Shown: positions 7,963-45,842 of the stretch, one piece after another
Position numbering within the stretch: position 1 is the first letter of the stretch
How the letters are laid out: every line of letters begins with the position of its first letter
Source: Deltaproteobacteria bacterium GWB2_55_19
GTDB lineage: Bacteria > Desulfobacterota > GWC2-55-46
DNA: 64,000 nt
Direction of reading: 5' to 3'
Assembly (NCBI GenBank): GCA_001797465.1
Contig: MGPQ01000005.1
Span: forward strand, 95,032-159,031
Notes under the pieces: model-generated
The model's input: the letters and a program-made list of their open reading frames with translations, nothing else
Told to the model about the DNA's origin: nothing
Database searches by the model: none
Program-made: the position numbers and the translations under genes

Positions 7963-9411
7963 TCACATGTATTTCACTTCCCTGATGGTCGACAGATACC
8001 CTGTCTTACGCGCCTCGAGTTCCTGAAGGTTGAAATGCTCTCCCTTCATAGGGGTAAGGACGAACCTCTTTTTGCCCGCCGCCGCGACTATCTCAAATTT
8101 CCTCGCATAGTAGTTCTGTTGCAGTATGTCCGGGATATACCCCGTCTGCCGGAGTATCCCGGTCATACGGCGGAGCGCGACCTCCTTCTCGGATTCGTAT
8201 ATGACGACGAGATCGAGGGCCTTGGCCTCCCTGCACAACAGCTTCGCCTGTTCGTAAAGGAACCCTGGATTGCAGTAGACGAGCCCGCCGAAGGAGAACG
8301 ACTGCCATCTACCGTCCCTCAGGACGTTTATATTAGGCTCTAGGAGCTTCACAAGCCTTACGGGGTCCAGCCACTTTTCCATAGGCATGACGGACAACGC
8401 TCCGGCGAATTTCAAAAGCTCGAATTCACGGGCGCTCCTGTCGGCCTCCTTGAGCAGCACGGTAAACGGGTTAGTGCTTGGTATATGATGGTCCTTTACC
8501 GCCTTTATCACGTCATCAAACCACGATATCTGCGCATCCCCTGCGAGTTCCTTGAGCCTGGAGGCGCTTACGAAAGGGTGTTCATGGGTGTTATAGGCGC
8601 CGGAAGCCCAATACTCGGGTATCTTTCCCAGATCGTGCGCCAGCGCGGCGATCACGGCCCTGGGAATGTGGTTCTCGAAATCCGCATAAGTCTTCTCCAG
8701 AAGGCCGAATATCCGGTTCACAACTCCCGCAGTATGCTCCTTAAGAGAGACCCGGGAAAGGTTGTCCCTGACGCTATAGAGCTCCACGGCTTCCGAATCG
8801 TTCAATTTCGTCACCAACGAGGAGCAATGGCCGAAACGGTCAATCTCATGGATAAGCGCCTTTAAAAGGCCATCCGCCTTCTGAGCGGCGAATAAGCCCT
8901 CATAGGGTTTGAGCCTTTCGATAAGCCCAATGAGGGCCCCCTCCGAGAGCGGAGGAGCCTTGATAGCAACCGAGGAAGGAACCGCAGGAACAGGGGTTGA
9001 GGCTGGAGGTGAAACCATGACTTGAGCCGGTGTAGAGGCCTGTGCCTGAGAAGCCTTTTCCGTCGTCCCCTTTGCAGAAGAATTTTCACCAGCTTTCTTT
9101 TCCTCAACGGACCCGGTATCGCATTTATTCTTATAAAGCGACTCTACGCCCTCCGGGATATCGTTTATGGCTGTAACTTCATCGTTATATTTAAGCCACA
9201 CGCTGGCAAGCTCCGGAAGAGAAACATCTATCACGGGCTTTGGATTTTCACGGGCAGAGGAGAAGAAAGAAACAATGGCGAGGACGATAAGTAATATGCC
9301 TGCGGCGATCAAGAGTATCGGCACGGTTTCCATAGCGATCATTTGTAAACTACCATCCTTTAAAATTCGTATTTTTTGAAGAAGCGTTAGAATTATCGAC
9401 ATGCACAGCAC
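7963..9411 (-). CDS. membrane-anchored HD-domain phosphohydrolase
   Basis: An N-terminal TM is followed by a Ser/Thr/Pro-rich linker, then an HD motif (ALAHDLGKIPE ... HEHPF). Confidence 0.45.
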   Translation of the reverse strand: MLCMSIILTLLQKIRILKDGSLQMIAMETVPILLIAAGILLIVLAIVSFFSSARENPKPVIDVSLPELASVWLKYNDEVTAINDIPEGVESLYKNKCDTGSVEEKKAGENSSAKGTTEKASQAQASTPAQVMVSPPASTPVPAVPSSVAIKAPPLSEGALIGLIERLKPYEGLFAAQKADGLLKALIHEIDRFGHCSSLVTKLNDSEAVELYSVRDNLSRVSLKEHTAGVVNRIFGLLEKTYADFENHIPRAVIAALAHDLGKIPEYWASGAYNTHEHPFVSASRLKELAGDAQISWFDDVIKAVKDHHIPSTNPFTVLLKEADRSAREFELLKFAGALSVMPMEKWLDPVRLVKLLEPNINVLRDGRWQSFSFGGLVYCNPGFLYEQAKLLCREAKALDLVVIYESEKEVALRRMTGILRQTGYIPDILQQNYYARKFEIVAAAGKKRFVLTPMKGEHFNLQELEARKTGYLSTIREVKYM

Positions 9412-9439
9412 AAAATAGATTTTGGAGGATCTTTTTCAA

Positions 9440-10153
9440 TCACTGCCATATCTTCTTGTACTTGTCTATCCTATTGGTCTTTATCTTTCCCATGACGACG
9501 GAAAGAGCCAGTATGAGTATCGAAAAAAGACTTACAATCGTCAGGAAATAAACACTCGGGATGAGCTGCTCGATGAACTTGGTCATCCACAGATAAGTCT
9601 TGTAGCCGGGACGTAGAAACTCAGGGAGCTTCCAGATCATGCGCAGGATGTGGTCAGGCGTTAGAAAATTAAAGTACAGGATGTGAACTACAATAAACAT
9701 AACGATGGTTGAGAGAACTATAACGGAAGCCATTCCGAAGGTAACGGCATAAATCGCCTTTCGGGTAATGTTTTTACAGTATGTTTTCCTCAGAATTGCA
9801 AAAACTAACAACGAAGTGACGAGACTCGACGAGACGGTAAATAGTAGGATAAATACTCTTTCGAAAGTCGAAGGCGAATATGAGCCGAAAACCGGGATAA
9901 TCCCATCATGCGCGGCGAACATAAACAGAGAGAGAATAAAGGTCGCAACGGAGCTGAAGGCGGAAACCCTGCCCCCTTCGATCCAATATGTACGCATCTT
10001 TTCAGTCGTAAGAACCTCTTCAGGTATGGACGAGCCTTCCTTTTCAGCGACCGAATACTGTTCTATATCGCTCAGAACCTGCAGAAGTCCTTTGGGTAAA
10101 TTCTTGGAATTCGTCGTTGTTGTAACAATTGCCCCATCCTTATCCCTTGCCAT
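9440..10153 (-). CDS. polytopic membrane protein, unknown function
   Basis: A 237-aa protein with 4-5 predicted TM helices. Confidence 0.35.
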   Translation of the reverse strand: MARDKDGAIVTTTTNSKNLPKGLLQVLSDIEQYSVAEKEGSSIPEEVLTTEKMRTYWIEGGRVSAFSSVATFILSLFMFAAHDGIIPVFGSYSPSTFERVFILLFTVSSSLVTSLLVFAILRKTYCKNITRKAIYAVTFGMASVIVLSTIVMFIVVHILYFNFLTPDHILRMIWKLPEFLRPGYKTYLWMTKFIEQLIPSVYFLTIVSLFSILILALSVVMGKIKTNRIDKYKKIWQ

Positions 10154-10236
10154 ATTTAACCTCCTACTGTATAAATATGCCGTTCCTCGTAAAAAAATCC
10201 CTTGAGCCGAAAAAAGCTTAAAAATACTTACGGTCT

Positions 10237-11112
10237 TCAGGACCGGCAGATGCCTGACCTGTGGCTCGGCCAGTCGAAAACAAATATCCTGCTGTTACAG
10301 ATCCTGTCCTGAAACCTGTCCATGCATTGATTGCCGATAAGCTTCGTAAGAGTGACGTAATCCCTGTTGCTCGTCCCTATAAGAGGCTTTTTCCTCTCAT
10401 ATCTCCCGTCGATGACATCATAGAGGATGTTCTGCTCGGCTGAACTTCCAAACTGACCGCCCAATTCGTCTATCACGAGGAGATCGACGTCTATCATCTT
10501 CTTTATTACCTCTGATGCCCTTTCTTTTGTACCGTCCTGCCAGGATTCCTTAACTCGCCGGAATAATTCCGCTGCTTTGACATACTTTGCGGAATAACCA
10601 CGGACCGCCAGAGACTGCACCGCAGCGCATGCCAGATGCGTCTTACCGGTCCCTGGACTGCCAAGGAATAAAAGCCATGTGCCGAGCTTTCTTATGGTCT
10701 CGAAATTTTCAGTATAGGTCCTGGCTACATCAGCCACTTCAGATTGTTTTGCACTCTCAACTCTGTAATCGTCAAACGTCTTACCCAAAAACAACTCGTT
10801 AACGCCGGTCTGTCTGATCCTGACATCCGTAATCGTCGACATGCCTGCATACTTGAATCTGGTATCCGTCACCGCCGGAGACGAACGTGAATTATCGGGC
10901 TGATTTAACGCCCCGCCGCAGCCGCACGGTGTAGGAACCCATCCAGGTCCCGACAATCCTGTATGCTTGAAAAGAAACGATAGACTCTCGCCTATCCAGA
11001 TATATTGAAGATCGGAGCCGCAATAGGGACACGTAGATACCGGCTTGGACGGTCTTTTCTCCGAATATGAATGCTCCATTAAGTCGCTGATTTTACAAAT
11101 ATTGCTCTGCAT
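10237..11112 (-). CDS. DnaC/IstB-like AAA+ helicase loader with N-terminal zinc finger
   Basis: Walker A LLFLGSPGTGKTHLACA and Walker B LLVIDELG are present. An N-terminal C..C zinc ribbon is also present. Confidence 0.7.
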   Translation of the reverse strand: MQSNICKISDLMEHSYSEKRPSKPVSTCPYCGSDLQYIWIGESLSFLFKHTGLSGPGWVPTPCGCGGALNQPDNSRSSPAVTDTRFKYAGMSTITDVRIRQTGVNELFLGKTFDDYRVESAKQSEVADVARTYTENFETIRKLGTWLLFLGSPGTGKTHLACAAVQSLAVRGYSAKYVKAAELFRRVKESWQDGTKERASEVIKKMIDVDLLVIDELGGQFGSSAEQNILYDVIDGRYERKKPLIGTSNRDYVTLTKLIGNQCMDRFQDRICNSRIFVFDWPSHRSGICRS

Positions 11113-11115
11113 GTT

Positions 11116-12261
11116 TTAATTCACCTCCAGAAACGGCAGTTTATTCCTTTCGAGTATGTGGTCGGGAACGCCGAAGTTCTTAGCGGCCAGCTTTACAACC
11201 TGGCTGTTTTTCCGCCAGAAGGCTTCTATGTCAGCAAACTTACTCCTGAATTTCGCAAGGCTTTTTACTTCATCGCCGAAAATCCAGTCAACATTCCTGC
11301 CTGCCGGAGAGGTATCCCTGTAGTAAAGATACAGTCTGCGTATATAATCCTCCGGATCCTGTAAATCGCGCCTGCCGCCTAGGCTCTTTAGGAGTTCGCT
11401 GAATATTTTAGCTATCCTGCCGCCTCCGTTCCCGTTAAGTTTCTCGGGTGGAGAGTTTTCCCAAAGCCCGTGATACCAGTCGATAAGACGCCTGATCGCC
11501 GGATCTGCCTGCTTCTCTTTCGCCTTTGCCTTCAACTTCGCATTCGTTTTTGCTTCACCGCTGTTTTTATCGAGCGCGAATGTATTTAAGTCTTTAGTAT
11601 TTATACTTGTCTTTGTATTTAATAATTTCGTGGCACCTCCAGCATGCCGGGATTCAGCAATATGACGCTTTTCAACTGGAATCGCCTCAGGCTGCCCGCT
11701 CTTCACAATCTTGTCAGCCTGTTTTCCACCTTCTTGTTTGTCGGTTTTCAGCAAGCTGGTGTTTTTCATGATGAATTGTCCCAGTTTGTTAGTTTCTAGG
11801 GTACTTGTCTGCTGGTTTTTGGCATTATGTTGATCTTCAAGAAGGATTCCCTCGGGCTGTTTAACTCCAACAATCTTGTCCGCTGATCTCCTCACACTTG
11901 TTTGCTGGTTATCAGCATTATGTTGATTTGAAAAGAAAATCCCGCTGAAGAACGCGTTTATCCTGTCCATGTTGAGCCTGTAGTAAAGCTTGCGTGGGCA
12001 ACCTGCGTATTTTTCTTCCAAGAACCCGAGATCCTTGAGCAACCTTCTCGAGGACTCCTGTTCGCACCTTGACAACCCTGTTTCCTCGCTCATCTCACGT
12101 TGTGTCTTATTAAGCCATCCGTCCGGAGTCTGCTCCTCCCCCTTCCAGTAAAGCATCTGACACAAAAAAATCGTGGCCGTAACGCTGCCCGTTAAAGGAA
12201 CCAGCCCCGGATAATAGGCGATAGGTTTCCCGATTCTCTGCAAATAGTCGGTCAGATGCAT
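11116..12261 (-). CDS. replication initiator (phage O / DnaD-like winged-helix N-domain); start taken at the ATG at 12261 with GAGGAG RBS
   Basis: The segment LTGSVTATIFLCQMLYWKG..GWLNKTQREMSEETGLSRCEQESSRRLLKDLGFL has the pattern of Phage_rep_O-type initiators. The longer 457-aa ORF in the table would overlap the upstream small gene by 200 nt. Confidence 0.4.
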   Translation of the reverse strand: MHLTDYLQRIGKPIAYYPGLVPLTGSVTATIFLCQMLYWKGEEQTPDGWLNKTQREMSEETGLSRCEQESSRRLLKDLGFLEEKYAGCPRKLYYRLNMDRINAFFSGIFFSNQHNADNQQTSVRRSADKIVGVKQPEGILLEDQHNAKNQQTSTLETNKLGQFIMKNTSLLKTDKQEGGKQADKIVKSGQPEAIPVEKRHIAESRHAGGATKLLNTKTSINTKDLNTFALDKNSGEAKTNAKLKAKAKEKQADPAIRRLIDWYHGLWENSPPEKLNGNGGGRIAKIFSELLKSLGGRRDLQDPEDYIRRLYLYYRDTSPAGRNVDWIFGDEVKSLAKFRSKFADIEAFWRKNSQVVKLAAKNFGVPDHILERNKLPFLEVN

Positions 12262-12287
12262 CTCTTTACTCCTCAAAGATTCGGAAG

Positions 12288-12521
12288 TCACTTCAACAAG
12301 GTTCCGCAATAAGTAAATAACAACGTCAAGATAAGCAGGATGATCGTCAGGCCGAACCTTCGAACAACAAGGGCATACATACTCATCACCAGAAGCGCCG
12401 AAGCAAAAATATGTGCCGTAAAGCCATAGAACAGGGTTGATATCAGATAGAACCACCATTCTCTGTAAGCTTCCGGCGTCACACCCCAATTTGTAGGATT
12501 AAAGTACTCAAAAGAAGACAT
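12288..12521 (-). CDS. small two-TM membrane protein
   Basis: A 77-aa hydrophobic protein. Coding status is uncertain. Confidence 0.3.
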   Translation of the reverse strand: MSSFEYFNPTNWGVTPEAYREWWFYLISTLFYGFTAHIFASALLVMSMYALVVRRFGLTIILLILTLLFTYCGTLLK

Positions 12522-12533: not shown

Positions 12534-13943
12534 TTAAATGCCGCTTATTTTCGGGAATTGCACCCGTATATACGGGTCATGAACCATGGCCGTCTCCCCT
12601 TTGAACATTATCCCCTCCTTCCGCATGTAGAACCATCGTGGGGCAAGAGCCACAACCCGTTCTTTCAGCACAAGCCTTTCTTCAACTTCCCTTAAAGACA
12701 CCCCCGTCTTCTCCCCCGAAAGATTCAGGATTGGCTGCTGCATCTTCTTGAGTGGCGTCGATTCCTCTACGAATTTCGAGGTCTTTTCATGGTTGACCCG
12801 CATGAAAACCCACGTATTGATGTTATCCAGGATGGACTGAGCCGCTTCCAAGCCTATCTCTTCCTCTATCTGCGCGATACTCTGGGTGAAGAAATGAAGC
12901 CACACCCCGGCGCCTCCGCCCTTGTTGAAAAGCTCCTGTATCCCCTTGTAAAGCACGTTATGCCCCTCGTCCACATAGACGCACAGAGGCGGATTGAGCG
13001 TCCTGCCGGAAGCGAAAAACCGTCCTACCGTTGACTGGATCATCGAAAGAAGCACCCTCCCGATTATGTGAGCGGTCCGGCGCGACAGAAGGCTTCCTGT
13101 ATTGCATACGAGTATCACCCCCCTGTTCCCTTCCTCGAACCTCTTTACAAATTCATTGGTGTAGGCCTTGCCTATGATGCGTCCTGTGGTGGATGACGTG
13201 AGAGCCGTAAGGGTGGTCCTCAACGACGAAGACACTTTTGCGAAAAAATCGGTCGGAGAAGCTATGATCTGTGCTATATCGGCGCATACCTCCTGGGCGA
13301 CCGTAGCCACGGCATGGTCAGTATGGTCCTTCAACATCGAGATGGTCTCCCTGAACTGCTCAAGGCTCTCGCGGCTGGACCTCTGTTTAATGTCGTAAAA
13401 ACTGAGCCTCGGCTTTTCGCCCTTGGCCTTCGCCAGCGCAATAAGCCCCTCAACGATTACGGTGCTTATCTCGCTAGCTACGTTAATGAAGTATTCCTCC
13501 TTGGCCCGGATGCCGGAAACCACGTGGTCCACAAGTTCATCAGGCATGTAAAAGTGCGCGAGCGGGTCTATCCGCAGGGAGTAATCGGGATATATAGGAG
13601 TGACAAGCATAAGGTCATTTAAACGGCCGGATTCGACTGCGGACTGAACAACCATGGAAAATAGGTCCTGGTCGCCTTTCGGGTCTATGACTATTACGTT
13701 TCTCCCCCCCTTGATATCCTGCGTAATAAGGTGAGTTAAAAGTCTGGTCTTCCCTATCCTCGTGGTGCCGAAACAACCGAAATGACCGGCCCTTTCACGT
13801 GCACTGAGATAAAGAGGATGAGGTTTTATCTCCGAACGCAGACTTTTAACGAGAGACACACCCCTGCCAAGACATATACGACCGCCATCATTGGTTGTAC
13901 TGCCCTTCCTGTTGATATTGAACAACGTATCGATATCTGACAT
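12534..13943 (-). CDS. AAA-like (HerA/TraG/VirB4-like DUF87) P-loop ATPase
   Basis: A Walker A motif (FGTTRIGKTRL) and a VIVIDPKGD motif typical of HerA/VirB4/T4CP ATPases are present. The start ATG overlaps the upstream stop as TGATG, suggesting translational coupling. Confidence 0.5.
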   Translation of the reverse strand: MSDIDTLFNINRKGSTTNDGGRICLGRGVSLVKSLRSEIKPHPLYLSARERAGHFGCFGTTRIGKTRLLTHLITQDIKGGRNVIVIDPKGDQDLFSMVVQSAVESGRLNDLMLVTPIYPDYSLRIDPLAHFYMPDELVDHVVSGIRAKEEYFINVASEISTVIVEGLIALAKAKGEKPRLSFYDIKQRSSRESLEQFRETISMLKDHTDHAVATVAQEVCADIAQIIASPTDFFAKVSSSLRTTLTALTSSTTGRIIGKAYTNEFVKRFEEGNRGVILVCNTGSLLSRRTAHIIGRVLLSMIQSTVGRFFASGRTLNPPLCVYVDEGHNVLYKGIQELFNKGGGAGVWLHFFTQSIAQIEEEIGLEAAQSILDNINTWVFMRVNHEKTSKFVEESTPLKKMQQPILNLSGEKTGVSLREVEERLVLKERVVALAPRWFYMRKEGIMFKGETAMVHDPYIRVQFPKISGI

Positions 13944-14353
13944 CAGAACCTGGCCTCCGTTTTTTTGACTTCCGAGGGCGGACATTCAGCTCTCAATATG
14001 GCCCCCCAGACGCTGACCTCTACATTGTATTTCTCACCGGACATACCCTTGACAATCCCCGAGAACCCCTCGTAACGGCCACCGACTATCCTTACCGGAG
14101 TCCCCGGAGGGTAAATCTCCTTTTTTATGAGCTCGGAGATCCGGCCGGCATCCTTGAGAAACGTTGTGTAGCTCCCTTTGAAATACTCGATCCGCGCTGC
14201 GGTTACGAACTCCTCCGGCAGAAATCGTGAAGGGTCCACGTTCACAAACAGATAATCGGGCAGCTTGGTCTCATAGACCTTTAGCTCCTCGACCTTCTTA
14301 AGGATGTTGAGTATCAGTTTTATCTTCTTCGGTGCCGCGTGAATCAGATACAT
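13943..14353 (-). CDS. NusG-family (KOW-domain) specialised transcription elongation/antitermination factor candidate
   Basis: The C-terminal GTPVRIVGGRYEGFSGIVKGMSGEKYNVEVSVWGAILRAECPPSEVKK aligns with the NusG KOW motif (G..VR...G.F..F.G.V......K..V.VS..G....VE). An NGN-like N-terminal segment is present. Confidence 0.5.
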   Translation of the reverse strand: MYLIHAAPKKIKLILNILKKVEELKVYETKLPDYLFVNVDPSRFLPEEFVTAARIEYFKGSYTTFLKDAGRISELIKKEIYPPGTPVRIVGGRYEGFSGIVKGMSGEKYNVEVSVWGAILRAECPPSEVKKTEARF

Positions 14354-14969
14354 GTTTTCCGTTCCTTGAAAATTTATTCAACAGGAAATCCAGCCTCCTG
14401 TTGAGGTATTCGAACCTCGCAGGGCGCATGCCCTCGAAGGTCTTTACTCCCAACTTTCCCTTATAAGACGTTTCTTTGGAAAGAATCGCCTCCGCCTCTT
14501 CACCAGTCAGTTCCGCAAGCCTCTTGAGCTTCTCCTCGACGGCGTTCCTTAAAGAGTCGTATTCCTCTCCCATGCCGAGTGAAAGCCCGGACCTTCCCAC
14601 CAGGTCGTATATCCTCATGGCTATGAATTTGTCGGACTTCATATGTATGGTAAATGAGATGCTTGTTTTGCGTGAAATAATAGACCTCATGATGCCTCTG
14701 AACACTACTCCTTCCAGATTGAAGACCAGCATCGTCCTGTCCGTGCCGACTTCGATTTTCTTTAGAAAATCCGAGATTTCCTTGCGCGGAGTGGGATTCT
14801 TGAGCGATAAGGACAAACATCCGTTCCCTGAATGCGTGTAACTGACAAAATTGACCGGAAAATTCGTATACATCTTGGTCTCCATCGCTGGCTCCTGATA
14901 CTTGTATATTACCGACCGAGACATCTTCGGCAAGGGAGGAAAATAATGATTTCCAACAAAAAAAGGCAT
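14298..14969 (-). CDS. hypothetical protein
   Basis: A 223-aa ORF in the co-oriented block with no recognisable motif. Confidence 0.35.
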   Translation of the reverse strand: MPFFVGNHYFPPLPKMSRSVIYKYQEPAMETKMYTNFPVNFVSYTHSGNGCLSLSLKNPTPRKEISDFLKKIEVGTDRTMLVFNLEGVVFRGIMRSIISRKTSISFTIHMKSDKFIAMRIYDLVGRSGLSLGMGEEYDSLRNAVEEKLKRLAELTGEEAEAILSKETSYKGKLGVKTFEGMRPARFEYLNRRLDFLLNKFSRNGKHVSDSRGTEEDKTDTQHP

Positions 14970-15006
14970 ACCCGAGGGTATGCCTTTTAAGGTTAGTTTC
15001 CCTTAT

Positions 15007-15438
15007 TTAAAAAGGAACGTTCAAATCCGAGATATCAGGCGGAACATCATCCGCCAGAGGAGAAGCCTTAGATGCACCCTGGGATGACGTACCATTGGAG
15101 ACCTTAGACACATCATCCTTCTTACCCAGTATCTGAACCGTGTTCGCCAATATCTCGGTCGTAGTACGCTTGTTTCCTTCCTTATCCTCCCAGCTACGAG
15201 TCTGAAGCTTGCCCTCCAGGTAAACCTGCCGGCCCTTGGAGAGATACTCCCCGCAAATCTCCGCGAGCTTTCCGAAGGCTATGACCCTGTGCCATTCGGT
15301 CTTCGTCTCCTTCTGGCCGTCCTTGTTGCGAGTCTCACTGGTAGCCAGGCTAAAATTCGCCACCGCGGTGCCTGACGGCGTATAACGCATCTCGACATCT
15401 TTCCCCAGAAACCCTAAAAGAATTACCTTATTTACCAT
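15007..15438 (-). CDS. ssb: single-stranded DNA-binding protein
   Basis: It has an OB-fold SSB pattern and an acidic C-terminal tail [14 protein letters not shown] (the SSB D-I/L-P-F tail). Confidence 0.8.
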
Positions 15439-15453
15439 TTTAAATTACCCCCT

Positions 15454-15825: not shown

Positions 15826-15869
15826 CCTTTACAGGCATATTATTTTGAGTCAGCATGAAAGTCCCTCCC

Positions 15870-17915: not shown

Positions 17916-17927
17916 TTATCTCACCTC

Positions 17928-19327: not shown

Positions 19328-19340
19328 TTGACAGCCTGCC

Positions 19341-19369: not shown

Positions 19370-19392
19370 TGCATTAAGCTTAAGAGGACCGT

Positions 19393-19653: not shown

Positions 19654-19655
19654 AA

Positions 19656-34588: not shown

Positions 34589-34597
34589 CTCCGTTTT

Positions 34598-36748: not shown

Positions 36749-36751
36749 AAT

Positions 36752-37933: not shown

Positions 37934-37937
37934 ATAT

Positions 37938-38456
37938 TCACCTCTTTGTCATGATCTCAATCAACGTATCCTTTTCCTCAGGGGTAAGGTAGAGATAATC
38001 CGGCATCGACTCCCCTTCCTGTCTGTCGTTAAGCTCAAGAGGAGCTGCAGTAACGACAGTCCCGAAAAAATTGACCAGAACCGTCTTCTCCACCGTCACC
38101 GGGTCCCCCCAGTCATCCCCATGCCTGATATCGTAATAGAACAGACCTGGTTCACGGTCGTTTTCAGGAATCCTGAACTCAGAGACCATAAGGATATTAT
38201 CAGGGTCTAAACGGGGCTTCCTTACCACCAGACATCCCTTGGTCCCTATCGCCTTTCTGAAGGCATAGACAAGCTCCCCGTTCTCGTTGTTCTCGGGCCC
38301 TTCGACGGCGGCCTGGGTGAGCTCGGGGTATACGCTCGAATAAAACGACCTTACTTCCTCAGGCTTCATATTGACATCCGGGTCCTGAAGGACCATCGAA
38401 TTGTATTTGAAAACCCTCTTTACCTCGGTTACTTCCGCCATTGTTTTCTCCTTCAA
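37938..38456 (-). CDS. hypothetical protein with possible N-terminal beta-grasp/Ubl-like region
   Basis: A 172-aa protein. Residues 1-75 end in ..AFRKAIGTKG, followed by a separate C-terminal region. The Ubl-like assignment is speculative. Confidence 0.3.
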   Translation of the reverse strand: MKEKTMAEVTEVKRVFKYNSMVLQDPDVNMKPEEVRSFYSSVYPELTQAAVEGPENNENGELVYAFRKAIGTKGCLVVRKPRLDPDNILMVSEFRIPENDREPGLFYYDIRHGDDWGDPVTVEKTVLVNFFGTVVTAAPLELNDRQEGESMPDYLYLTPEEKDTLIEIMTKR

Positions 38457-38478
38457 AGATTTTTTGTAGACGAACGCA

Positions 38479-38967
38479 TCAACCGAACAGGGTAGGGATC
38501 AGCGACTCCTTCTTATCCGGCGGAGCAGCGGCTTCCATGTTCTTACCTGACTCCATAGAGTCCTCAGATTCCGTACCATCTGTTTTTTTAGGCGATGGCA
38601 CTGTCCTGGCGGCAGACTTCTTTGCAGATTCCAGCTTCTTGTTGCAGGCTTCCTTCGCCTGTTTAAGCGCCTCTTGAGTGCTGTCGTCCAGTCCCTTCAG
38701 GGCCTCCTCGAAACTGCGCCTTCTGGTGCTATCCTGAGAAAGGATCTCCATGAACTTCCCGTCAAGCTCCTCCGTAGTGGCGGTTATGACAAAAGGCGAC
38801 CTTACCTTTTCGATGGCGTCACCGGCGTCCGTTACGTTGTTCAACTTCTTTTCTGGATATCTGGGATGCACCATGACACACAGCCTGCCGTCCTCGGCAA
38901 CCCTTAATGACAGGAGCAGATCCCCTTTTTCTGGTATCAAACTTTTAATCTCAGAAGCTTTCAGCAT
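38479..38967 (-). CDS. hypothetical protein (162 aa, ends in Gly)
   Basis: An N-terminal folded region is followed by a long charged tail ending ..PTLFG. Confidence 0.3.
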   Translation of the reverse strand: MLKASEIKSLIPEKGDLLLSLRVAEDGRLCVMVHPRYPEKKLNNVTDAGDAIEKVRSPFVITATTEELDGKFMEILSQDSTRRRSFEEALKGLDDSTQEALKQAKEACNKKLESAKKSAARTVPSPKKTDGTESEDSMESGKNMEAAAPPDKKESLIPTLFG

Positions 38968-39221
38968 GTCTTTATTCCTCCCTTTCTTTTATTGGTTGTT
39001 TCATTCTCCTCCACTTTTCTACATCTTATGTGTCTCGCCTTGCCGCTGCCCATTAGGACGGCTTTCGAATAGTCGTCCAGCAGACGGCCGCACTTGTAGC
39101 AGGAAGGAACCTCGAATTTCTCGATCCTGAAGCCAGTTTTGCAGACCGGACAAAAAAATTCGTCATCTCCCCTCCTGTAACGTCTAAATCTCTTGCTTCT
39201 GCAAGCAGGACAAAACACCAT
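38961..39221 (-). CDS. zinc-ribbon protein (start taken at the ATG at 39221 after AAGGAGGTGG)
   Basis: The motifs CPACRSK...CPVCK...CYKCG are present. The longer table ORF would start inside the intergenic element hairpin. Confidence 0.4.
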   Translation of the reverse strand: MVFCPACRSKRFRRYRRGDDEFFCPVCKTGFRIEKFEVPSCYKCGRLLDDYSKAVLMGSGKARHIRCRKVEENETTNKRKGGIKTC

Positions 39222-39244
39222 CCACCTCCTTTTTGATTTTCTTC

Positions 39245-39328
39245 GAAATAAAAAAAGCCACAGGAAAAAACTTCCCATGGCTTTATGTTCGTGATACCTA
39301 CTGAAAAAACTACATATCTATATATTAT
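39245..39328 (-). repeat. conserved intergenic element, copy 7
   Basis: It has the hairpin AGCCACAGGAAAAAACTTCCCATGGCT plus the core. Confidence 0.75.
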
Positions 39329-39336
39329 CTCTTTTA

Positions 39337-41526
39337 CTAAAGAAGTATCTTTGAATCAGCGGCGTCCTGCACATCAGGCGACTGGGAGATAAAAAACTCC
39401 ACATCGTACCCGCCAAGTTCAATGACCCGCTTCTTCATGGCGATAAACTCCTTTTTACGCCTAAAATCCAGCGCTCCGTCCTTCTCGTCGGTAAAAAGTG
39501 CCTGATACCTGCGACCGCTTCTCTGCGCGTTGTAAAGTGATATCGCCCTGGTCACGGCCTCTTCAATCCAGACCTTCTCCCCGCCACTCATCGTCTTAAG
39601 GCTCTTGGATTCGTCTCTTTCCGAGTCATAGACGGTTATGTCAAAGGTCTCTTTAGTCCCCTTCCCGTCGGCCTTGACAGCCTGGGTATCTATCTTTACG
39701 CTGAACCTCGTGCCGAAACAGCTCGCAAGGAGATCATTGGCTGATGAACTTATAGCGGGACCGGCATCGTCTATCTCCAAAGCGATGACGCCGTCGTTCC
39801 CGAAGGCCCTCTCCAGCAAGGCCCATTCCGAAACCTCCGCGTTCACGAATGATAAACGGTCATCCAAGGTCTTAATCTCTTTTATAGCCGCTTCTCCATC
39901 GGCCAGCTTTTTCTCGACACCCCCAAGGAGCTTCTTTATGTCATTGAGCTTCTCGATATATTCCTGGCGCTTCGATTTCAAAATGCCAAGTTCCCGTTCC
40001 TTCTCCTTGACCTTTGCAAGTGGATTCTCGCCGGCAAGGAAAGACCCCAATTCGGCCTTCAGGTTCTTAAGCTCGACATCGAGCCCGGGATACATAGATT
40101 CGGCAAACTCCACCTCCGGCAGACTCTTTCCCAGTTCGCCTGCCTTTCTTATCACCGTCTCGACCTCGATAATCTCCTTTGAGAGACTCTGCTTTTTCCT
40201 GACCGCGTCCAGTAACTCAACCTGGGCTTCCTTGAGCTTTAAAAGTTGAGGTTCCAGTTGTCTAATCTCTTTCCGCAGTCCCGCATCCTTACCGGGAGCT
40301 GCGCCGGAGGCCTGCAGTCTGGAGATCATCTCCGGGATAGACTTCTGGGCCTTCACCGCGTTTTTAAGGAGCGGACACCTATTATGATGTTCCGTTCCAC
40401 ACGGAACATCGCCAAGAAGCCCGGCGGTCTCCTTCGCTAGACGGAGGTCCTTTTTCAACACTTCTTCCGAGTGCTTTTGTACCAGAAGAAGCTCATCAAG
40501 GGACTTCCTTAGCAAAAGGAGTTTCCTTTCAGCTTCCCGGCCAGCCTGTTCCCTCTCCCGCAGCCCTGTTAAGGCGGTTTCGAGAGAGGCCATCTCTTTC
40601 TTAAGGAGCTCGGCCTTGCATTGATACCGTTTCAGTTCCGCCGAAGCGTCCTTGACGGTCTGAGCCCTGGACAGAATACCCTTCATCTTGTCTATTTTCC
40701 CTGCAACCTCCCTGATCCTAGCTTCTATGGAGCCGCGTTCTTCAAGTGACCTGGCATAAAGGGCTGCCTGAGCCTCTATATGCCTAAGCTCTACCTGCTT
40801 TCCCTCTATTCCGTCCTCGGCCAACCTTAATTCCTTTTCAAGGTCCATGTTCACAGTTTTAAGCCTCTCGGCTTCGGCATCGGCTTTTTTCGATTCGTCA
40901 ATTACCGCCGTAAGCCTCTCCTTCTCGCGCCTCAGCCATTCAGTATCCTTCAAAAAGCCTTCCTTTCTCTCCTTCGCCTTCTGACCCTTGGCTTTCAGCG
41001 ACTCTATACCGAGCAGTTCGACAAAGATGTCCTTTATCTCTCCTCTGGTGTAATCGCTCAGCCTCGGCGCGTCCTGACAACGGAAGACGCTTGTAAAAAA
41101 GAGCTGCGGAGAGCCCAGCAGGTTCTCTACCGTCTGATCATAAGTATCGGTCTTGCCGTCACTGAGGGCTTTCCATTCGCTCTCCGCCTCTTCATACAGG
41201 TATGCCTCCTGCTTCTTTCTTTCGACGTCAATAAGCAAAAGGCTCCTGTATCTGCGTCCGTTCAGCTCGAAGACGAACTCCTTGGAAGCGTCGCTCCCGT
41301 AACAGTCGTTATAGTAGCTGAATGCCCTGGAAGAATAGCTCCCTGCGCGGTACGGCATAATGCGGTAAGGATGAAGATTATCCAGCACCGTGGTCTTCCC
41401 GGAACCGTTCGGACCTGCTACGGCCACGAGGCCCGTACATGCTGAAAAATTGACCTCCAACTCGTCTTTTCCAGAACCCGACCTCACGCCTTTAAATCCT
41501 TTAAGTTTCAAGTACATGGGCCTCAT
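39337..41526 (-). CDS. sbcC: SbcC/Rad50-like SMC-type ATPase
   Basis: The N-terminal Walker A is GPNGSGKTTVLD. There is a long coiled-coil middle section. The C-terminus has the ABC signature MSGGEK and a Walker B LFTDE. Confidence 0.8.
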   Translation of the reverse strand: MRPMYLKLKGFKGVRSGSGKDELEVNFSACTGLVAVAGPNGSGKTTVLDNLHPYRIMPYRAGSYSSRAFSYYNDCYGSDASKEFVFELNGRRYRSLLLIDVERKKQEAYLYEEAESEWKALSDGKTDTYDQTVENLLGSPQLFFTSVFRCQDAPRLSDYTRGEIKDIFVELLGIESLKAKGQKAKERKEGFLKDTEWLRREKERLTAVIDESKKADAEAERLKTVNMDLEKELRLAEDGIEGKQVELRHIEAQAALYARSLEERGSIEARIREVAGKIDKMKGILSRAQTVKDASAELKRYQCKAELLKKEMASLETALTGLREREQAGREAERKLLLLRKSLDELLLVQKHSEEVLKKDLRLAKETAGLLGDVPCGTEHHNRCPLLKNAVKAQKSIPEMISRLQASGAAPGKDAGLRKEIRQLEPQLLKLKEAQVELLDAVRKKQSLSKEIIEVETVIRKAGELGKSLPEVEFAESMYPGLDVELKNLKAELGSFLAGENPLAKVKEKERELGILKSKRQEYIEKLNDIKKLLGGVEKKLADGEAAIKEIKTLDDRLSFVNAEVSEWALLERAFGNDGVIALEIDDAGPAISSSANDLLASCFGTRFSVKIDTQAVKADGKGTKETFDITVYDSERDESKSLKTMSGGEKVWIEEAVTRAISLYNAQRSGRRYQALFTDEKDGALDFRRKKEFIAMKKRVIELGGYDVEFFISQSPDVQDAADSKILL

Positions 41527-41541
41527 CCCATTACCTCCTTT

Positions 41542-41805
41542 CTACGGATACCAGTCAAAATGACAACCACAGAGATTCCCATTCTCCACCTCCACCATTA
41601 CCTTCCCAGGAAAGCTCAACTCTGCATGGAAATAATGGGAATTAAATCTCCCAGCCCCTGTCTCGTCGTGCCTGGCGCATGGATAGTAGTACCCGATCCT
41701 GCCCCCAAACGCAGGCAGGAATTCCCTGCTTAGCCATTCCCTCAGGCTACCTTCTATTTTTCTCTCTATTATTCTGAATGTCTCAATCATCAAACCTCCT
41801 TGCAA
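41542..41805 (-). CDS. hypothetical protein (87 aa)
   Basis: An ORF with an AAGGAGG RBS. Confidence 0.35.
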   Translation of the reverse strand: MQGGLMIETFRIIERKIEGSLREWLSREFLPAFGGRIGYYYPCARHDETGAGRFNSHYFHAELSFPGKVMVEVENGNLCGCHFDWYP

Positions 41806-41957
41806 CTCAAAAGCCGATCCGGGTGGTTATAACAAAACCCATAAACAGTAAACCTATCAGAATGCACCCGGCTGCAAAAATCTCAAGAGTTAGCAATGCC
41901 AAATTACGACCTCCTTTCTTTATATTTAAGTTATTTGCCGCCTTCTTTTTGTTTTCA

Positions 41958-42041
41958 TGAAATAAAAAAAGCCACAGGAAAAGTTCCCGTGGCTTTATGT
42001 TCGTAAGACCTACTGAAAAAATTACATGTCTATATATTACC
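41958..42041 (-). repeat. conserved intergenic element, copy 8
   Basis: It has the hairpin GCCACAGGAAAAGTTCCCGTGGC plus the core. A possible 31-codon hydrophobic small ORF (TTG start after AAGGAGG) follows on the minus strand at about 41917-41822. Confidence 0.75.
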
Positions 42042-42046
42042 TGCTT

Positions 42047-43222
42047 TTACACCGCCAAGGCTTCGGCCCGCTGTGTCTCTTCGCAAACATCCTCCCCATG
42101 TTCAAGCAGAGCGAGCTTCTTGAAAGCGCCTTCCGGAAGGTCTTCTCCTACCGTCTCGGCCCACTTCCTCAACTTATCGTCGAGGGAGGCAAGCCTTGAG
42201 ATACCCTCGGCCCTAACCCTCTGCCTGGGGACCACCGTCTTTTCTATCTTTATTTCGGCGGCTCCCATGGCTGCAAGCTTTTCCTTCAGGACCTTTTCAT
42301 CCACCATATGCACCTCTTCCTCCGATACCTGATATCTGAGCCGCACGCAAGCCCCTTCAGGGACATGCTCCAGAACATCAGGAGAAGGCGGGGCATCACA
42401 GTCTACCGTCACCATCTCTCTTGCGGGCGTCTTTATGAACCGGGAGGCTACCTTTCTGGCCTCGAAGCTATGTATCCAGAACCCCTTGTCCTCTGCCTCG
42501 CCAAAGTTCAGGCGTGTTATAGAGCCGGAGTAAAAGACCTCCCCCCAATTTTGAGCCTTATGAATATGGCCGAGGCAGACAAGGTCAGCCGCTGCCATCC
42601 GCAGGTCCCCAACACCGAGTTCCACTTCCCTGCCTACCATCTGCTGTCCAGTGGAAAGTATAGCGCCGGTCACGCTCAGATGACCGACAAGCACAGTCGG
42701 GATGTTCATTCTCACCCTTGTGTTGACCTCGCCCCAGCCCCTCAGGACATCGCGCATCAGCTCCACCGTGTTGAACGAAGTCTCGGAAAGGCTCCCTTTG
42801 TAAAAAGCCGCAATGGAAGCCTTGGAAACCGACGGCAGACACGAAAAAAGAGCTCCAGCATCCCCGGGAACAGTGCCGTTATACTTAATGAACCCCCTTG
42901 CAGTCAAAAGAACCTGCTCGGGCGCCTCTGATATATAGACCCTCTCGTTTTCAAAGAACTTGAGGGTCTGTCCGTCATGAGAAGGCGTGCCCTTTACGAT
43001 AAGAACCGGAGCAGTCCTCGAGAGTCGGCGTATATACCGGTCCGCAGTGAGAAAGGCCGGACTGTCATAGGTCTGCCTCTCATCGAATATATCTCCGGCT
43101 ATTACGATCGCATCCGGCCTGACAGACGATTCAGCCCTTTTTGCTGCAAAATCGACGCATTTTTCTATCTCCGCAAGCAGGTCGTTCCTGAAGTGGATAT
43201 CCCCTAAGTGTAAAATCATCAT
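42047..43222 (-). CDS. sbcD: SbcD/Mre11-like metallophosphoesterase nuclease (start at MMILHLGDIHF)
   Basis: The calcineurin-like motifs LHLGDIHF and IAGDIFDE are present. It is paired with sbcC. A GGGAGA RBS lies before the internal ATG at 43222. Confidence 0.8.
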   Translation of the reverse strand: MMILHLGDIHFRNDLLAEIEKCVDFAAKRAESSVRPDAIVIAGDIFDERQTYDSPAFLTADRYIRRLSRTAPVLIVKGTPSHDGQTLKFFENERVYISEAPEQVLLTARGFIKYNGTVPGDAGALFSCLPSVSKASIAAFYKGSLSETSFNTVELMRDVLRGWGEVNTRVRMNIPTVLVGHLSVTGAILSTGQQMVGREVELGVGDLRMAAADLVCLGHIHKAQNWGEVFYSGSITRLNFGEAEDKGFWIHSFEARKVASRFIKTPAREMVTVDCDAPPSPDVLEHVPEGACVRLRYQVSEEEVHMVDEKVLKEKLAAMGAAEIKIEKTVVPRQRVRAEGISRLASLDDKLRKWAETVGEDLPEGAFKKLALLEHGEDVCEETQRAEALAV

Positions 43223-43376
43223 TTCTTTGTCTCCCTCATAAGTTTTTCCCATGCCACCGCAAGCCTCTTGGAATGAACCGATGAGACCCAAAACCATATA
43301 ATACTGCGGTCTGCACCAGGATCTGAGAATCGGGATAGTACGCTCCTGAGTTTTTTTAGCATAACGGCTCCATACG

Positions 43377-44270
43377 TCAGGCCGCCGCGGTTGTCGAGTT
43401 ACTACCGATAGAGACTGAAGGCTCCACTAACCCGATGAGCCTATCGGAAATCTTCCGCATCTTTTCCCCAGCCGAAAGAACCTCCTTCATCTCCCCTCTG
43501 GCCCAACTGGCGATGTATGGGACCGAATAGCCCGAAGAATTGAGGCCGAAATGGGCCGAGACAATATAGGCGGCTCCCTCGGCGATCAGTTCTTCGCGGT
43601 TCCGGTCGATTCCGGCTTTCCCGTTCTCCTCCAAAGACAGATGATGCGCAAGCTCGTGAAGAAGCGTCTTACATCTCTGCTCGGACGTAAGGGCGTCGGA
43701 TAGAACTATCTTCTTTTCTTTCGGCAGATAGTACCCGTTCGAATCTCCGATTATTTCTTCGTAATCAACCGGCACTGGCGAAGCCCCAAGAATCCTCTTG
43801 AAAAGATCCTCGGCATCGCCGATGTCCATGCATGGCCTTCCGATCTCAAGCTCCGGAAGCGGTTTCCCTTCGGTCTGGGAAACGTCAAAGACGTAGACGC
43901 CCTTAAAGCCAGCCAAAGTCTGCATTTCCTTTCCCTGAGCCGATTCAGTCGCTTCAACCGATTCGGCCGTTACATCAGGGCCAGAGTTTTCATCCGACTT
44001 GACAGCCTTCTTTACTTTCTTGAGAAAAGGCGCGAAAATCATAATCCCTTTCTCTCCTTTCCTTACAGTCCTGCCCAACGAGTTCCAGAACCTCATACCG
44101 GCGACCCGTGTGGCATTGGGGCGTTGCGTCCAGATTAGCAGGACATTCCCGAAGCTGTACTTTCTGAACTTTGACGAAAAGCGTAGAAAGTCCGTGAAGC
44201 TTTTGGACTCGATGAGCTTTTTAACCCCTTCCAGGAGTTTTTCCTGATATTCCTTGACCTTAATTACCAT
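43377..44270 (-). CDS. ardC: ArdC-like antirestriction protein (ssDNA-binding N-domain + HExxH metalloprotease C-domain)
   Basis: The ArdC-N pattern YSFGNVLLIWTQ..ATRVAGMRFWNSLGRTVRKGEKGIMIFAP is present. The C-terminus has LLHELAHH. Confidence 0.75.
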   Translation of the reverse strand: MVIKVKEYQEKLLEGVKKLIESKSFTDFLRFSSKFRKYSFGNVLLIWTQRPNATRVAGMRFWNSLGRTVRKGEKGIMIFAPFLKKVKKAVKSDENSGPDVTAESVEATESAQGKEMQTLAGFKGVYVFDVSQTEGKPLPELEIGRPCMDIGDAEDLFKRILGASPVPVDYEEIIGDSNGYYLPKEKKIVLSDALTSEQRCKTLLHELAHHLSLEENGKAGIDRNREELIAEGAAYIVSAHFGLNSSGYSVPYIASWARGEMKEVLSAGEKMRKISDRLIGLVEPSVSIGSNSTTAAA

Positions 44271-44368: not shown

Positions 44369-45016
44369 TTACTCGTCGACCAGATGTATCGGCGCTCCTT
44401 CTGCAAGGGCTTTCTTCACCCTGTCGTCCGCCATTTTGTTTTCAGGCATGACATACTCGAAATGGGCAAAGGGCAGCCAGAGAAAAGTTCCAGCCGAATA
44501 CTTGGGCCGGTAATTGTTCACCATCCGCGGCACGTTATAGGTGGTAGATCCGATTTTTCTAAAGTATTTTTCGTCCTGAAGTTCAGCATCGACAAAGAAG
44601 TAAAGGCTTCGTAAGCAGAACTCCCCACCCTTTTCGTGCGTGGGTATGTCTTTCGGACACCGGTCGACAGACTCCTTTGTTTCATCGACAAGAGCTTTTG
44701 GATGTATGAAAAACATCCTCGACTGAAACGGTGTCACTCCGGACCAGTCGAAATTGACAGGTACCCTTTTAGATACCCCGAGATACCTCGTCTCCTCGAT
44801 GAAATCCGGACAGAAGGGATAGAACTCCTGCCCGACCCAGAATATGAGGTCCTTGACGCCGTTTCTCTCCTGCACCAGAGGGGCCCTGAAAGGGTCGCCG
44901 TTATACGGCAGCGGCGGGTCAATCAGAAAATGCTCGATAGGCTCGCCGTATGGAGAAGTGCCACAACAGGCATATAGACCTCCTTTTACCCTCTTTCCGC
45001 ATCCTCTCGTCGTCAT
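44369..45016 (-). CDS. hypothetical protein (215 aa)
   Basis: An ORF that overlaps the parB-like stop by 4 nt. Confidence 0.35.
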   Translation of the reverse strand: MTTRGCGKRVKGGLYACCGTSPYGEPIEHFLIDPPLPYNGDPFRAPLVQERNGVKDLIFWVGQEFYPFCPDFIEETRYLGVSKRVPVNFDWSGVTPFQSRMFFIHPKALVDETKESVDRCPKDIPTHEKGGEFCLRSLYFFVDAELQDEKYFRKIGSTTYNVPRMVNNYRPKYSAGTFLWLPFAHFEYVMPENKMADDRVKKALAEGAPIHLVDE

Positions 45017-45729
45017 GAATATTGGACCTCCTTTTTCAAAAATCCCCTTATTACGTCCACGGCGTTCTTTACATCTTCCGACAGTGGATGACCGGTTGAC
45101 ATCTTCGCGACCACCAACTCAAAGTCCAAAACCAGCTGATCGCACCCTTCCTCAACCGGAATCAGCGAGAGTAACGATGAAAGATTATGCTTAACCTTCC
45201 TCTGGTGCACATCCTCTTTCGTAATCTCTCCACTTAAGACGAGCTCCTTCTGAGCCTCTTTCGGCAACCGAGAAAGCTCAAAGGCGGTCGATGCGTTGAC
45301 CTCCCCCGATTTGACCTTGTTGAGCGCCTCTTTGCAAAGGTTCAACAGCCTAAAGTGCTTCTTGAGCTGCGTCCTGGAAAGACACAGCCTGTCGGCTATC
45401 TCCTGCTGCGTATAGCCGGACTTGATACAGAGCCTGATCTTATCGACTTCGTAAGCCAGGTTCGGTGACCGTTGAAGGTTCAACATCACCCCGAGAAGAT
45501 CAGAGTCATTCTCCCCTTCCTCCATGATTATCGCCGGGACCGTCTCAAGACCAAGATTCCTTGCGGCCTGGATCCTGCGGCGCCCATCGATAACCTCATA
45601 CCCATGCCCGTTTTTGTTGATCATTATTGGAACCCTGATACCGACTTCCTTGATGCTCTCTACAAACTTCGTTCCGGGCAGACACGTCTCAGTTCTTATG
45701 TCCACTACGTTGACTTCCCTTACCTCCAT
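45013..45729 (-). CDS. ParB/Spo0J-like nuclease-fold DNA-binding protein
   Basis: The ParB N-domain GRRR motif (VIDGRRRIQAA) is present. It is the first gene after the most upstream intergenic element copy. Confidence 0.7.
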   Translation of the reverse strand: MEVREVNVVDIRTETCLPGTKFVESIKEVGIRVPIMINKNGHGYEVIDGRRRIQAARNLGLETVPAIIMEEGENDSDLLGVMLNLQRSPNLAYEVDKIRLCIKSGYTQQEIADRLCLSRTQLKKHFRLLNLCKEALNKVKSGEVNASTAFELSRLPKEAQKELVLSGEITKEDVHQRKVKHNLSSLLSLIPVEEGCDQLVLDFELVVAKMSTGHPLSEDVKNAVDVIRGFLKKEVQYS

Positions 45730-45758
45730 ACTCCTTACACCTCCTTTTTGTGGTTTTT

Positions 45759-45842
45759 AAAATAAAAAAAGCCACAAGAACGAATTCTCGTGGCTTTTGT
45801 TCGTAAAGGCCTACTGAAAAAATTACATACTCATATATTACC
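45759..45842 (-). repeat. conserved intergenic element, copy 9 (most upstream)
   Basis: It has the hairpin GCCACAAGAACGAATTCTCGTGGC plus the core TTTTGTTCGTAAAGGCCTACTGAAAAAATTACATACTCATATATTACC. Confidence 0.7.

Follow-up and report, generated by a model that had tools for sequence, protein, structure and literature searches.

A co-oriented 38-kb gene block beside an F-type secretion operon as the probable backbone of a conjugative element from a groundwater Desulfobacterota bacterium

The stretch of DNA analyzed here (hereafter, the window) comprises 64,000 nucleotides of contig MGPQ01000005.1 (positions 95,032 to 159,031) from Deltaproteobacteria bacterium GWB2_55_19, and it contains a block of genes at 7963-45842 that lies almost entirely on the minus strand. 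The open reading frame (ORF) listing gave ~38 minus-strand ORFs of at least 50 aa in this block, together with several smaller ones, against two credible plus-strand genes (27286-27624, with an HTH_17 match in Pfam, and 19393-19653) and a third possible one at 19120-19344. This bears out the one-strand arrangement described in a first-pass annotation of the same DNA. The strand bias is far above chance under a 50:50 expectation, yet typical for mobile elements. Nearly all gene calls of that annotation were recovered using Pfam, NCBIfam and PHROGs, with a NusG-like call as the weak exception, and the F-type tra genes it had placed nearby on the same strand were identified as TraL, TraE, TraK and TraB (429-3343). 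Of the block limits it proposed, the upstream end held; the co-oriented extent did not, as the minus-strand orientation is almost unbroken from 429 to ~58.5 kb. Plus-strand GC skew is uniformly -0.1 to -0.2, falling to ~0 at 58-60 kb, and no tRNA genes were found in the window using ARAGORN. We consider it about 80% probable that this block forms the conserved backbone of a large element that transfers itself by conjugation through an F-type (MPF_F) mating apparatus, carried by an uncultivated groundwater host of the Desulfobacterota. The element is of a known kind with two unusual details, namely a candidate new type of nicking enzyme and a nine-copy, putatively regulatory repeat.

Table 1 Features of the window, with coordinates, strand and the matches on which the assignments are based.
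Feature	Coordinates	Strand	Evidence
Start of type IV secretion system operon: bPH_2, DsbA-like, lytic transglycosylase, OmpA-like, pilin-sized ORF, TraL, TraE, TraK, TraB	429-6650	-	Pfam
Cobalamin riboswitch (6758-6943) and CbiM transporter gene (7174-7830)	6758-7830	+	Rfam RF00174, 121.7 bits; CbiM E 4e-33
HD-domain protein (7963-9411, start probably 9342) and multi-pass membrane protein (9440-10153)	7963-10153	-	
DnaC/IstB-like loader (10237-11112) and O-like initiator (11116-12489)	10237-12489	-	phrog_9773 E 1e-32; IstB_IS21 E 2e-21
Type IV coupling protein, TraD (SXT/PFGI-1) lineage	12534-13985	-	TIGR03743 (SXT_TraD) E 5e-52; TraG-D_C; TrwB_AAD_bind
Small KOW-domain, NusG/RfaH-like protein, 136 aa	13943-14353	-	Weak matches to UpxY, RfaH, NusG
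SSB and NrdJ (class II, B12-dependent; 15870-17915)	15007-17915	-	Ribonuc_red_lgC E 5e-123; SSB E 1e-37
Gp3-like, CHC2+Toprim primase-like, DUF6094 methyltransferase, 213-aa protein, SNF2 helicase	20319-27139	-	Pfam
Variable insert: SAP + MuF-like (28629-29708), Gp49/HI1420 toxin-antitoxin (29708-30360), beta clamp (30586-31674)	28629-31674	-	Pfam
Two PRTRC-linked proteins, 371 aa and 527 aa	31709-34588	-	No Pfam, NCBIfam or PHROG match
PRTRC cassette	34671-39278	-	NCBIfam PRTRC_A, B, C, E, ThiF; Pfam Prok_Ub, Prok-E2_D, Prok-JAB, DUF2016, ThiF
SbcC/Rad50-like ATPase (39337-41526), small ORF, SbcD-like nuclease (42047-43297)	39337-43297	-	Metallophos; AAA_23/SMC_N
ArdC-type antirestriction protein (ArdcN + zincin metallopeptidase)	43377-44270	-	ArdcN E 4.5e-12; DUF6782/M78/MPTase-PolyVal matches
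ParB-like protein, first gene of the module	45013-45729	-	ParB_N + HTH_ParB; TIGR00180 E 9e-22
Box + terminator, copy 1, before ParB	45753-45843	-	Repeat families D1-D7, alignment
Box + terminator, other copies	41952-42042, 39240-39330, 34593-34683, 33371-33460, 27197-27286, 22582-22672, 20010-20171, 19215-19327	-	
Heavy-metal resistance island (12.5 kb), then tRNA/tmRNA-like 3' fragment (~58862-58916)	46136-58916		Repeat D11; Pfam P-type ATPase, RND/HlyD/OEP, EamA

The block is joined to the conjugation system rather than separate from it, with a type IV coupling protein inside and the type IV secretion system (T4SS) operon directly downstream on the same strand. The coupling protein, which had been overlooked in the first-pass annotation, lacks the N-terminal membrane part and shares 48% identity with its counterpart on a plasmid of Desulfosarcina sp. 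BuS5. Its distant relatives are TraD proteins that adjoin MobH relaxases, a lineage that partners MOBH. To the left of the window the T4SS continues with TraV and TraC; a DUF6035 nuclease gene is inserted after these, and a 641-aa protein and TraN follow. The apparatus belongs to MPF_F, with TraL, TraE, TraK and TraB in the window, TraV, TraC and TraN on the same contig, and TrbC and TraU in close relatives. The closest T4SS proteins in PLSDB (40-43% identity) are found on circular plasmids of Desulfosarcina sp. BuS5 (NZ_CP087953), Pelobacter propionicus (pPRO1, NC_008607) and Geobacter anodireducens (CP014964).

Conservation of the block is most evident in a relative represented by a single 39-kb contig (L043/L051), which was found via homologues of the HD-domain protein and the 527-aa protein and has 29 genes in common with the window, at 42-84% identity and in the same order. 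Its syntenic stretch runs from SbcD through the PRTRC, Gp3-like, primase, methyltransferase, SNF2, NrdJ, SSB, KOW, coupling, membrane and HD genes to CbiM, and the same junction between CbiM and an F-type T4SS follows. Identity is 70-72% for the SbcD-like and SbcC-like proteins, 66-83% for the genes at 20319-27139 and 79% for the KOW protein, which is directly upstream of the coupling protein there too, and the 86-aa product of 19393-19653 (+) is 39% identical to an ORF on the opposite strand of the relative. The clamp and the O/DnaC pair are missing from this contig and its toxin-antitoxin pair differs, the variable insert being absent or replaced by PIN/MazE; we therefore regard the clamp, the toxin-antitoxin pair and the O/DnaC pair as accessory insertions. 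The arrangement of block and T4SS recurs on 10-13 independent metagenome contigs. At the other end, a metagenome-assembled contig from another aquifer (L038, titled 'Deltaproteobacteria bacterium') is 95% identical over ParB and the first intergenic element, to position 45915, and past this point diverges into two-component and ABC-transporter genes. The upstream limit (~45.85-45.9 kb) is therefore a genuine module boundary. In a related strain (L037, ~88% identity), the genes of the right flank are joined directly to a 94%-identical Gp49/HI1420 locus (L037 9398-9917, corresponding to window positions 58969 and 30189-29705), so this toxin-antitoxin pair moves independently of the module.

By content, the genes would fall into five groups. 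The first would serve establishment, anti-defence and recombination, and comprises the ParB-like, ArdC and SbcCD-like proteins, PRTRC with its two linked proteins, the Gp3-like and primase-like proteins, and an orphan methyltransferase with SNF2. A second would serve nucleotide and DNA supply (NrdJ and SSB, plus the beta clamp in this copy), and a third would process DNA for transfer, namely the TraD-type coupling protein, the membrane protein and the HD-domain protein as a putative relaxase or relaxase-associated nuclease. The fourth is the O/DnaC replication cassette, which has iterons, is of phage type and was acquired; the T4SS operon forms the fifth. All or part of the block may be expressed early in a new host.

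In the F plasmid, leading genes point toward oriT and the tra operon. The first-pass annotation had read the block as such a leading region of a conjugative plasmid, in which case the origin of transfer (oriT) would be expected at ~6.6-8 kb, the plus strand would be transferred and the block would enter first. In its favor, ArdC, methyltransferase, SSB and toxin-antitoxin genes all lie on one strand, which we assume to be the transferred strand (T-strand), the F-type T4SS is aligned with them, and the closest complete relatives are circular plasmids. Leading-region genes are described as lying on the transferred strand, with the T-strand as template, and the presence of ArdC, methyltransferase, SSB, ParB-like and toxin-antitoxin genes and their orientation toward tra match such regions (PMC11541004). 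However, no oriT or nick site was recognized in the intergenic regions, no Frpo-like single-stranded DNA (ssDNA) promoter structure forms, and the genes nearest to tra are those of the HD protein, loader, initiator and coupling protein, with the anti-defence genes 25-38 kb away. A coupling protein, a replication origin and NrdJ are also not leading-region functions. With oriT not found, anti-defence genes distal, and processing and replication functions included, the leading-region account is only partly supported: gene content and orientation agree with it, and we consider it doubtful as a description of the block. As the block also carries a candidate relaxase, the clamp and PRTRC next to the coupling protein, replication cassette and NrdJ, we read it as a whole maintenance and DNA-processing backbone, which is more than a leading region.

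The same annotation had offered an alternative in which the block would hold the early or replication genes of a phage-plasmid, and a prophage would be a related possibility. Several genes here are common in phages, including those for the O-like protein with iterons and the DnaC-like, Gp3-like, MuF-like, NrdJ, clamp and SbcCD-like proteins. Three 32-nt iteron-like repeats lie inside the O-like gene (11732-11927), and in a phage protein search the O/DnaC pair matched replication modules of temperate phages. This pair was the sole part of the block to match phages, however, and it is an insertion, placed here between the coupling protein and the membrane/HD pair and absent from L043. PHROG matches in the block were restricted to the O-like protein and the MuF-like domain, phage records gave no DNA-level match, and a single IMG/VR query with the 527-aa protein returned no relative. 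A megablast comparison of 24 kb to plasmids and phages yielded nothing beyond 100 nt of NrdJ that matched Ca. Manganitrophus plasmids. Capsid, tail, terminase and lysis genes were found neither in the 64 kb nor in ~10 kb past each end, nor in ~10 kb past TraN in a relative, and an F-type T4SS is present instead. The earlier statement that virion genes are lacking thus also holds for the flanks, and with no virion genes in these stretches, no phage DNA match and only the O/DnaC pair matched in the phage protein search, a phage origin of the block appears highly improbable.

A weightier alternative, which we place somewhat short of even odds, is that the element is a chromosomal integrative and conjugative element (ICE) whose ParB end abuts an attachment site with accreted resistance islands. 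The metal-resistance island beyond this end is bracketed by 39-nt direct repeats (46136-46174 and 58706-58744, 92% identical). The fragment that follows it comprises a T-arm, acceptor and CCA without a complete gene; the T-arm matches Rfam, and ARAGORN finds no gene. Its assignment as tRNA-Leu(CAA) was unsupported past the T-arm and acceptor end. The same unit, ~290 nt long, flanks a chromate-resistance cassette in related strains (L036 4393-4600 and 8008-8299) as well as other blocks, and is also found past the right flank (L037 301-592). Judged from these repeats, the islands look as if they had accreted in tandem at a single attachment site, and no integrase is visible. A shift in both GC skew and gene orientation occurs at 58-60 kb, and overlapping Rifle groundwater metagenome contigs (a 168.7-kb JGI contig covering the whole window and a 170-kb ENA scaffold reaching 139 kb past its left end) give a combined span of at least 238 kb. 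ICEs that combine PRTRC with an F-type T4SS are known, for example the 232-kb phn island (PMC3318190), and homologues of the 527-aa protein occur with PRTRC on contigs of 0.9-1.9 Mb. On the other side, neither an integrase nor an intact target tRNA was present in the window or its ~10-kb flanks, a metagenome scan with the fragment gave only three more fragments, and no empty site was found among 23 contigs. A plasmid is also favored by the ParB-like gene, by the iteron-bearing replication cassette and by the closest complete relatives, which are plasmids. Beyond the island, a 278-aa ORF at 60369-61205 (+) contains a tandem 134-nt repeat (60446 and 60755, 77% identical) that forms two copies of a Cys-containing domain, and adjoins ArsR regulators and a sulfide:quinone-reductase-like Pyr_redox_2 gene.

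The candidate nicking enzyme is the HD-domain protein. It belongs to a small family with an N-terminal transmembrane (TM) helix, a conserved helical domain, an HD domain in which H, HD..K, H, HH and D are invariant, and a C-terminal domain. The coupling protein has a homologue of this family beside it in L043, in the BuS5 plasmid, in pPRO1 (hhalign E 4e-32) and in pCIG1485E (E 6e-20), and these pairs lie inside or beside a complete F-type T4SS. In PLSDB, homologues were found on only six plasmids, all of which (6/6) are typed 'non-mobilizable'; plasmids of this group are typed in this way because typing tools recognize no relaxase. No relaxase is annotated in the whole BuS5 plasmid, in 46 kb of pPRO1 or in 50/70 kb of pCIG1485E, and all three carry an F-type T4SS and a coupling protein. 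The HD protein is therefore found, within an MPF_F element, with a TraD-lineage coupling protein and a small membrane protein. The MOBH prototype likewise combines an HD motif and an N-terminal membrane-associating helix with linkage to a coupling and a membrane protein (PMC6736028), and the HDLGK(I)P motif that is invariant in the HD family resembles HDLGKP of MobH. On the basis of the linkage, we regard the HD protein as a putative relaxase, or a nuclease associated with one, that would be MOBH-like in its working, without claiming its membership in MOBH. The first-pass statement that a relaxase is lacking holds for recognized families in the window, and is probably wrong given this candidate beside the coupling protein.

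A leftward walk with TraN in search of a relaxase reached a BREX island of a relative instead, and the inverted repeat at 14941-15008, considered as oriT, is a plain terminator after ssb. On pCIG1485E of Campylobacter iguaniorum (L054), an 800-aa protein annotated as 'diguanylate cyclase' beside the coupling protein (34113-36515) is the HD-family homologue noted above and is probably mis-annotated. This plasmid also has a long co-oriented block, which includes SSB, Bet, an ArdC-like zincin and a toprim protein.

The second unusual detail is a repeated element, nine copies of which are found in intergenic positions between 19.2 and 45.85 kb. It consists of a conserved box of ~45 nt followed by a terminator and, 10-60 nt past this, by a ribosome-binding site (RBS) and start codon. 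On the gene strand the element reads GTAATA, exactly 19 nt, CAGTAG(G/A), 3-5 nt, ACGAAYA, a GC-containing hairpin and a run of 7-8 T. The box pattern was counted six times against none expected from shuffled sequences, and six more copies occupy equivalent sites in L051; the internal spacing is fixed. Pairing of the hairpin is kept at 97% with compensatory changes at 4/13 pairs, and in four copies a different, longer hairpin takes its place with the T-run still following. Its behavior as an intrinsic terminator is thus well supported. A genome scan located the box on one contig only, which carries the same element, and there was no match in PLSDB plasmids.

Several familiar explanations of the box did not fit. 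The distance from terminator to RBS is too short to hold a promoter, and no -35 is conserved upstream of the box. A sigma-70 promoter within the box was rejected for either strand, as no -35 is conserved, the last base of TAATAT is variable and promoter scans performed no better than on shuffled sequences. When six of the intergenic elements were folded as DNA, only the 13-bp terminator hairpin formed; the box remains unpaired in ssDNA and is therefore not a single-strand promoter of the Frpo type. No known RNA family in Rfam matched the box, and in comparison to ops (GGCGGTAGCGTG) only GTAG is in common. In the simplest reading, transcription would reach each operon only past the terminator, the box would be the control site, and about nine transcription units would be switched jointly by box and intrinsic terminator. 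The most likely mechanism would be factor-dependent read-through, possibly via the KOW/NusG-like protein of the element. Precedents for such control exist. Plasmid p576 carries Reg576 operators as a repeated cis element before establishment operons that include ardC (PMC6294495), processive antitermination in conjugation operons allows terminators to be overridden by a dedicated factor (PMC8955417, PMC8191782), and RfaH-like factors with ops-like sites are encoded on plasmids (PMC11880322). We tentatively favor read-through as the role of the box. An operator or promoter function is somewhat less probable, and what probability remains falls to a small RNA (sRNA) or primer unit, or to something else.

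It is conceivable, if less likely than not, that the membrane-anchored HD protein founds a new relaxase class, at best distant to MOBH, and that the nine box-terminator cassettes form a new establishment regulon in which leaders terminate without an element-encoded factor, possibly the mini NusG-like protein. A number of observations count against the interpretation developed here. The HD protein did not match Pfam TraI_2 or NCBIfam relaxase models, its only matches being to PF01966 (HD) and Cas3/Cas10 HD models, and fold searches returned only generic HD hydrolases. The HHH triplet of the MOBH 3H motif (SExHHH) is lacking from the family, which has a single invariant His 33 residues upstream. 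Alignment against four MobH domains using hhalign gave a probability of 76% (E 2e-5) over just 102 columns, covering the C-terminal half of the HD domain and the G-W...G-V-W motif that follows. In addition, a true N-terminal TM helix is unusual in relaxases. Because TraI_2 is unmatched, the 3H motif is not evident and the MobH profile match is partial, we treat the HD protein only as a candidate. A recognized relaxase, oriT or integrase was found neither in the window or ~10 kb past either end, nor in ~10 kb past TraN of a relative. The NusG-likeness of the 136-aa protein is weak, with E 0.005 for the NusG KOW domain (PDB) and E 0.3 for an alignment with RfaH; of the first-pass NusG-like call the KOW domain is thus weakly retained (E ~0.005), and an NGN domain is conjectural. 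Lastly, contigs past the window carry ordinary-looking genes, and with the span of at least 238 kb and the tRNA-like fragment at 58.9 kb, chromosomal integration is therefore possible.

Among the remaining genes of the backbone, the ubiquitin-like (Ub-like) conjugation set is a PRTRC cassette, which is already known. Its order is Zn-ribbon, PRTRC_E, Ub-like C with LPD28, a 393-aa helical protein, E2-like B, JAB A and ThiF/E1. All five models passed their cutoffs (in bits, cutoff in brackets: A 132.6 (101.8), B 153.5 (131.45), C 83.9 (45.95), E 46.2 (37.95) and ThiF 255.7 (144.75)), and ORFs at the positions expected for proteins D and F had no match to the D or F models, with the 393-aa helical protein filling the F position. 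The ParB-like protein (238 aa) scored 43 bits against the PRTRC_parB model (TIGR03734; cutoff 278.6). The arrangement matches operon type 6d (row 6d) of Iyer et al. 2006 (PMC1779556), and PRTRC is known on the megaplasmids pMOL28 and pHG1 as well as on Ca. Manganitrophus plasmids. The Ub-like protein (37938-38456, -) is fused to LPD28, a large polyvalent-protein-associated domain; the fusion is kept in L051 and connects PRTRC with the theme of polyvalent proteins in conjugative elements. A family profile of the neighboring 527-aa protein (31709-33292, -) matches the motifs of the MutL N-terminal GHKL ATPase (E 8e-5). This family has more than 85 unannotated homologues, one of which again lies beside PRTRC on a 1.9-Mb contig (L052 10001-11620), and the protein may represent a component of PRTRC that has not been described before. 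Many plasmids carry the methyltransferase-small ORF-helicase trio. PADLOC returned generic likenesses (an LmuB-like SbcC, an E1-E2/BilD ThiF and a Cas3-HD HD protein) for the block, and because these matches are generic no known defence system was called.

The cobalamin riboswitch and CbiM gene form the sole plus-strand unit between the DNA-processing and T4SS genes, and occupy the same position in L043. Together with the B12-dependent NrdJ on one element, they suggest that the element may secure its own cofactor supply. Within the T4SS, a defence hotspot separates TraC from TraN. Here it holds a DUF7830/DUF6035 CoiA-like nuclease (L001 14425-15780, -), and a 95%-identical relative (L039) has SIR2-HerA at this place (2722-7190, -) and BREX after TrbC (16960-23756).

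In anaerobic bacteria of groundwater and sediment, conjugative elements are poorly described. The one presented here combines a transfer machine with metal-resistance islands, a B12-riboswitch transporter and a B12-dependent reductase, a combination relevant to how genes move in contaminated aquifers, Rifle among them. If the HD protein were the nicking enzyme, mobility predictions would change for this group and for some Campylobacter plasmids too; and if it represented a new relaxase class, a set of F-type plasmids of Desulfobacterota and Campylobacterota typed as 'non-mobilizable' would be self-transmissible. A box regulon, if real, would make the expression of 26 kb all-or-none and transient once the element has entered a new host. 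The element offers a compact natural case for how establishment genes in a long block are jointly turned on, and for what PRTRC does on mobile elements.

Compared to known systems, the plasmids of Ca. Manganitrophus have PRTRC and NrdJ in common with the element, but not the synteny. Closer in kind are the F-type plasmids of the Desulfobacterota, which share the coupling-HD pair, SSB, lytic transglycosylase and DUF6094 methyltransferase and likewise have no recognized relaxase. They differ in that only 9-11 window proteins have homologues there, no PRTRC occurs in the parts seen, box repeats are absent, and they have their own replication and partition genes (RepA-type, ParA, ParM). The O/DnaC cassette corresponds to the lambda-type replication module, as in lambda, too, the iterons lie within the O gene and the loader gene is next to it. 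Other PRTRC systems have in common the Ub-like, E2-like, JAB and E1-like proteins, protein E, a ParB-like gene nearby and the setting of a mobile element; here, in contrast, the ParB is short (238 aa) and fails PRTRC_parB, ArdC and SbcCD lie between ParB and the cassette, the Ub-like protein is fused to LPD28, and the D and F models are unmatched.

For the box-terminator array, Frpo, RfaH/ops, IncX PrfaH/ActX and conAn of pLS20 provide parallels, as these systems feature long co-oriented operons punctuated by terminators or a repeated cis element. In the antitermination systems the terminators are overridden by a dedicated factor, and the element encodes a NusG-like candidate of its own. Its box is unrelated in sequence to Frpo, ops and the TTATCCC operator, and whereas a single recruitment site is described for the antitermination systems cited above (PMC8955417, PMC8191782, PMC11880322), here one box with a strong terminator right behind it precedes each unit, nine times.

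The element also resembles MOBH/MPF_F elements such as SXT/R391 ICEs, IncA/C and IncP-type Pseudomonas plasmids and the gonococcal genetic island, in which the TraD-lineage coupling protein adjoins the nicking enzyme and a small membrane protein (L045; PMC6736028). A 460-aa HD protein with a TM helix and no TraI_2/MobH match occupies that place here, the coupling protein lacks the membrane domain, and PRTRC, NrdJ, clamp and box-terminator array are present in addition. SXT-type elements likewise have defence-gene hotspots that interrupt their T4SS clusters. Further shared features are ssb and recombination genes located upstream on the same strand, and DNA-processing genes placed just upstream of a thioredoxin/DsbA-like gene and traL-E-K-B-V.

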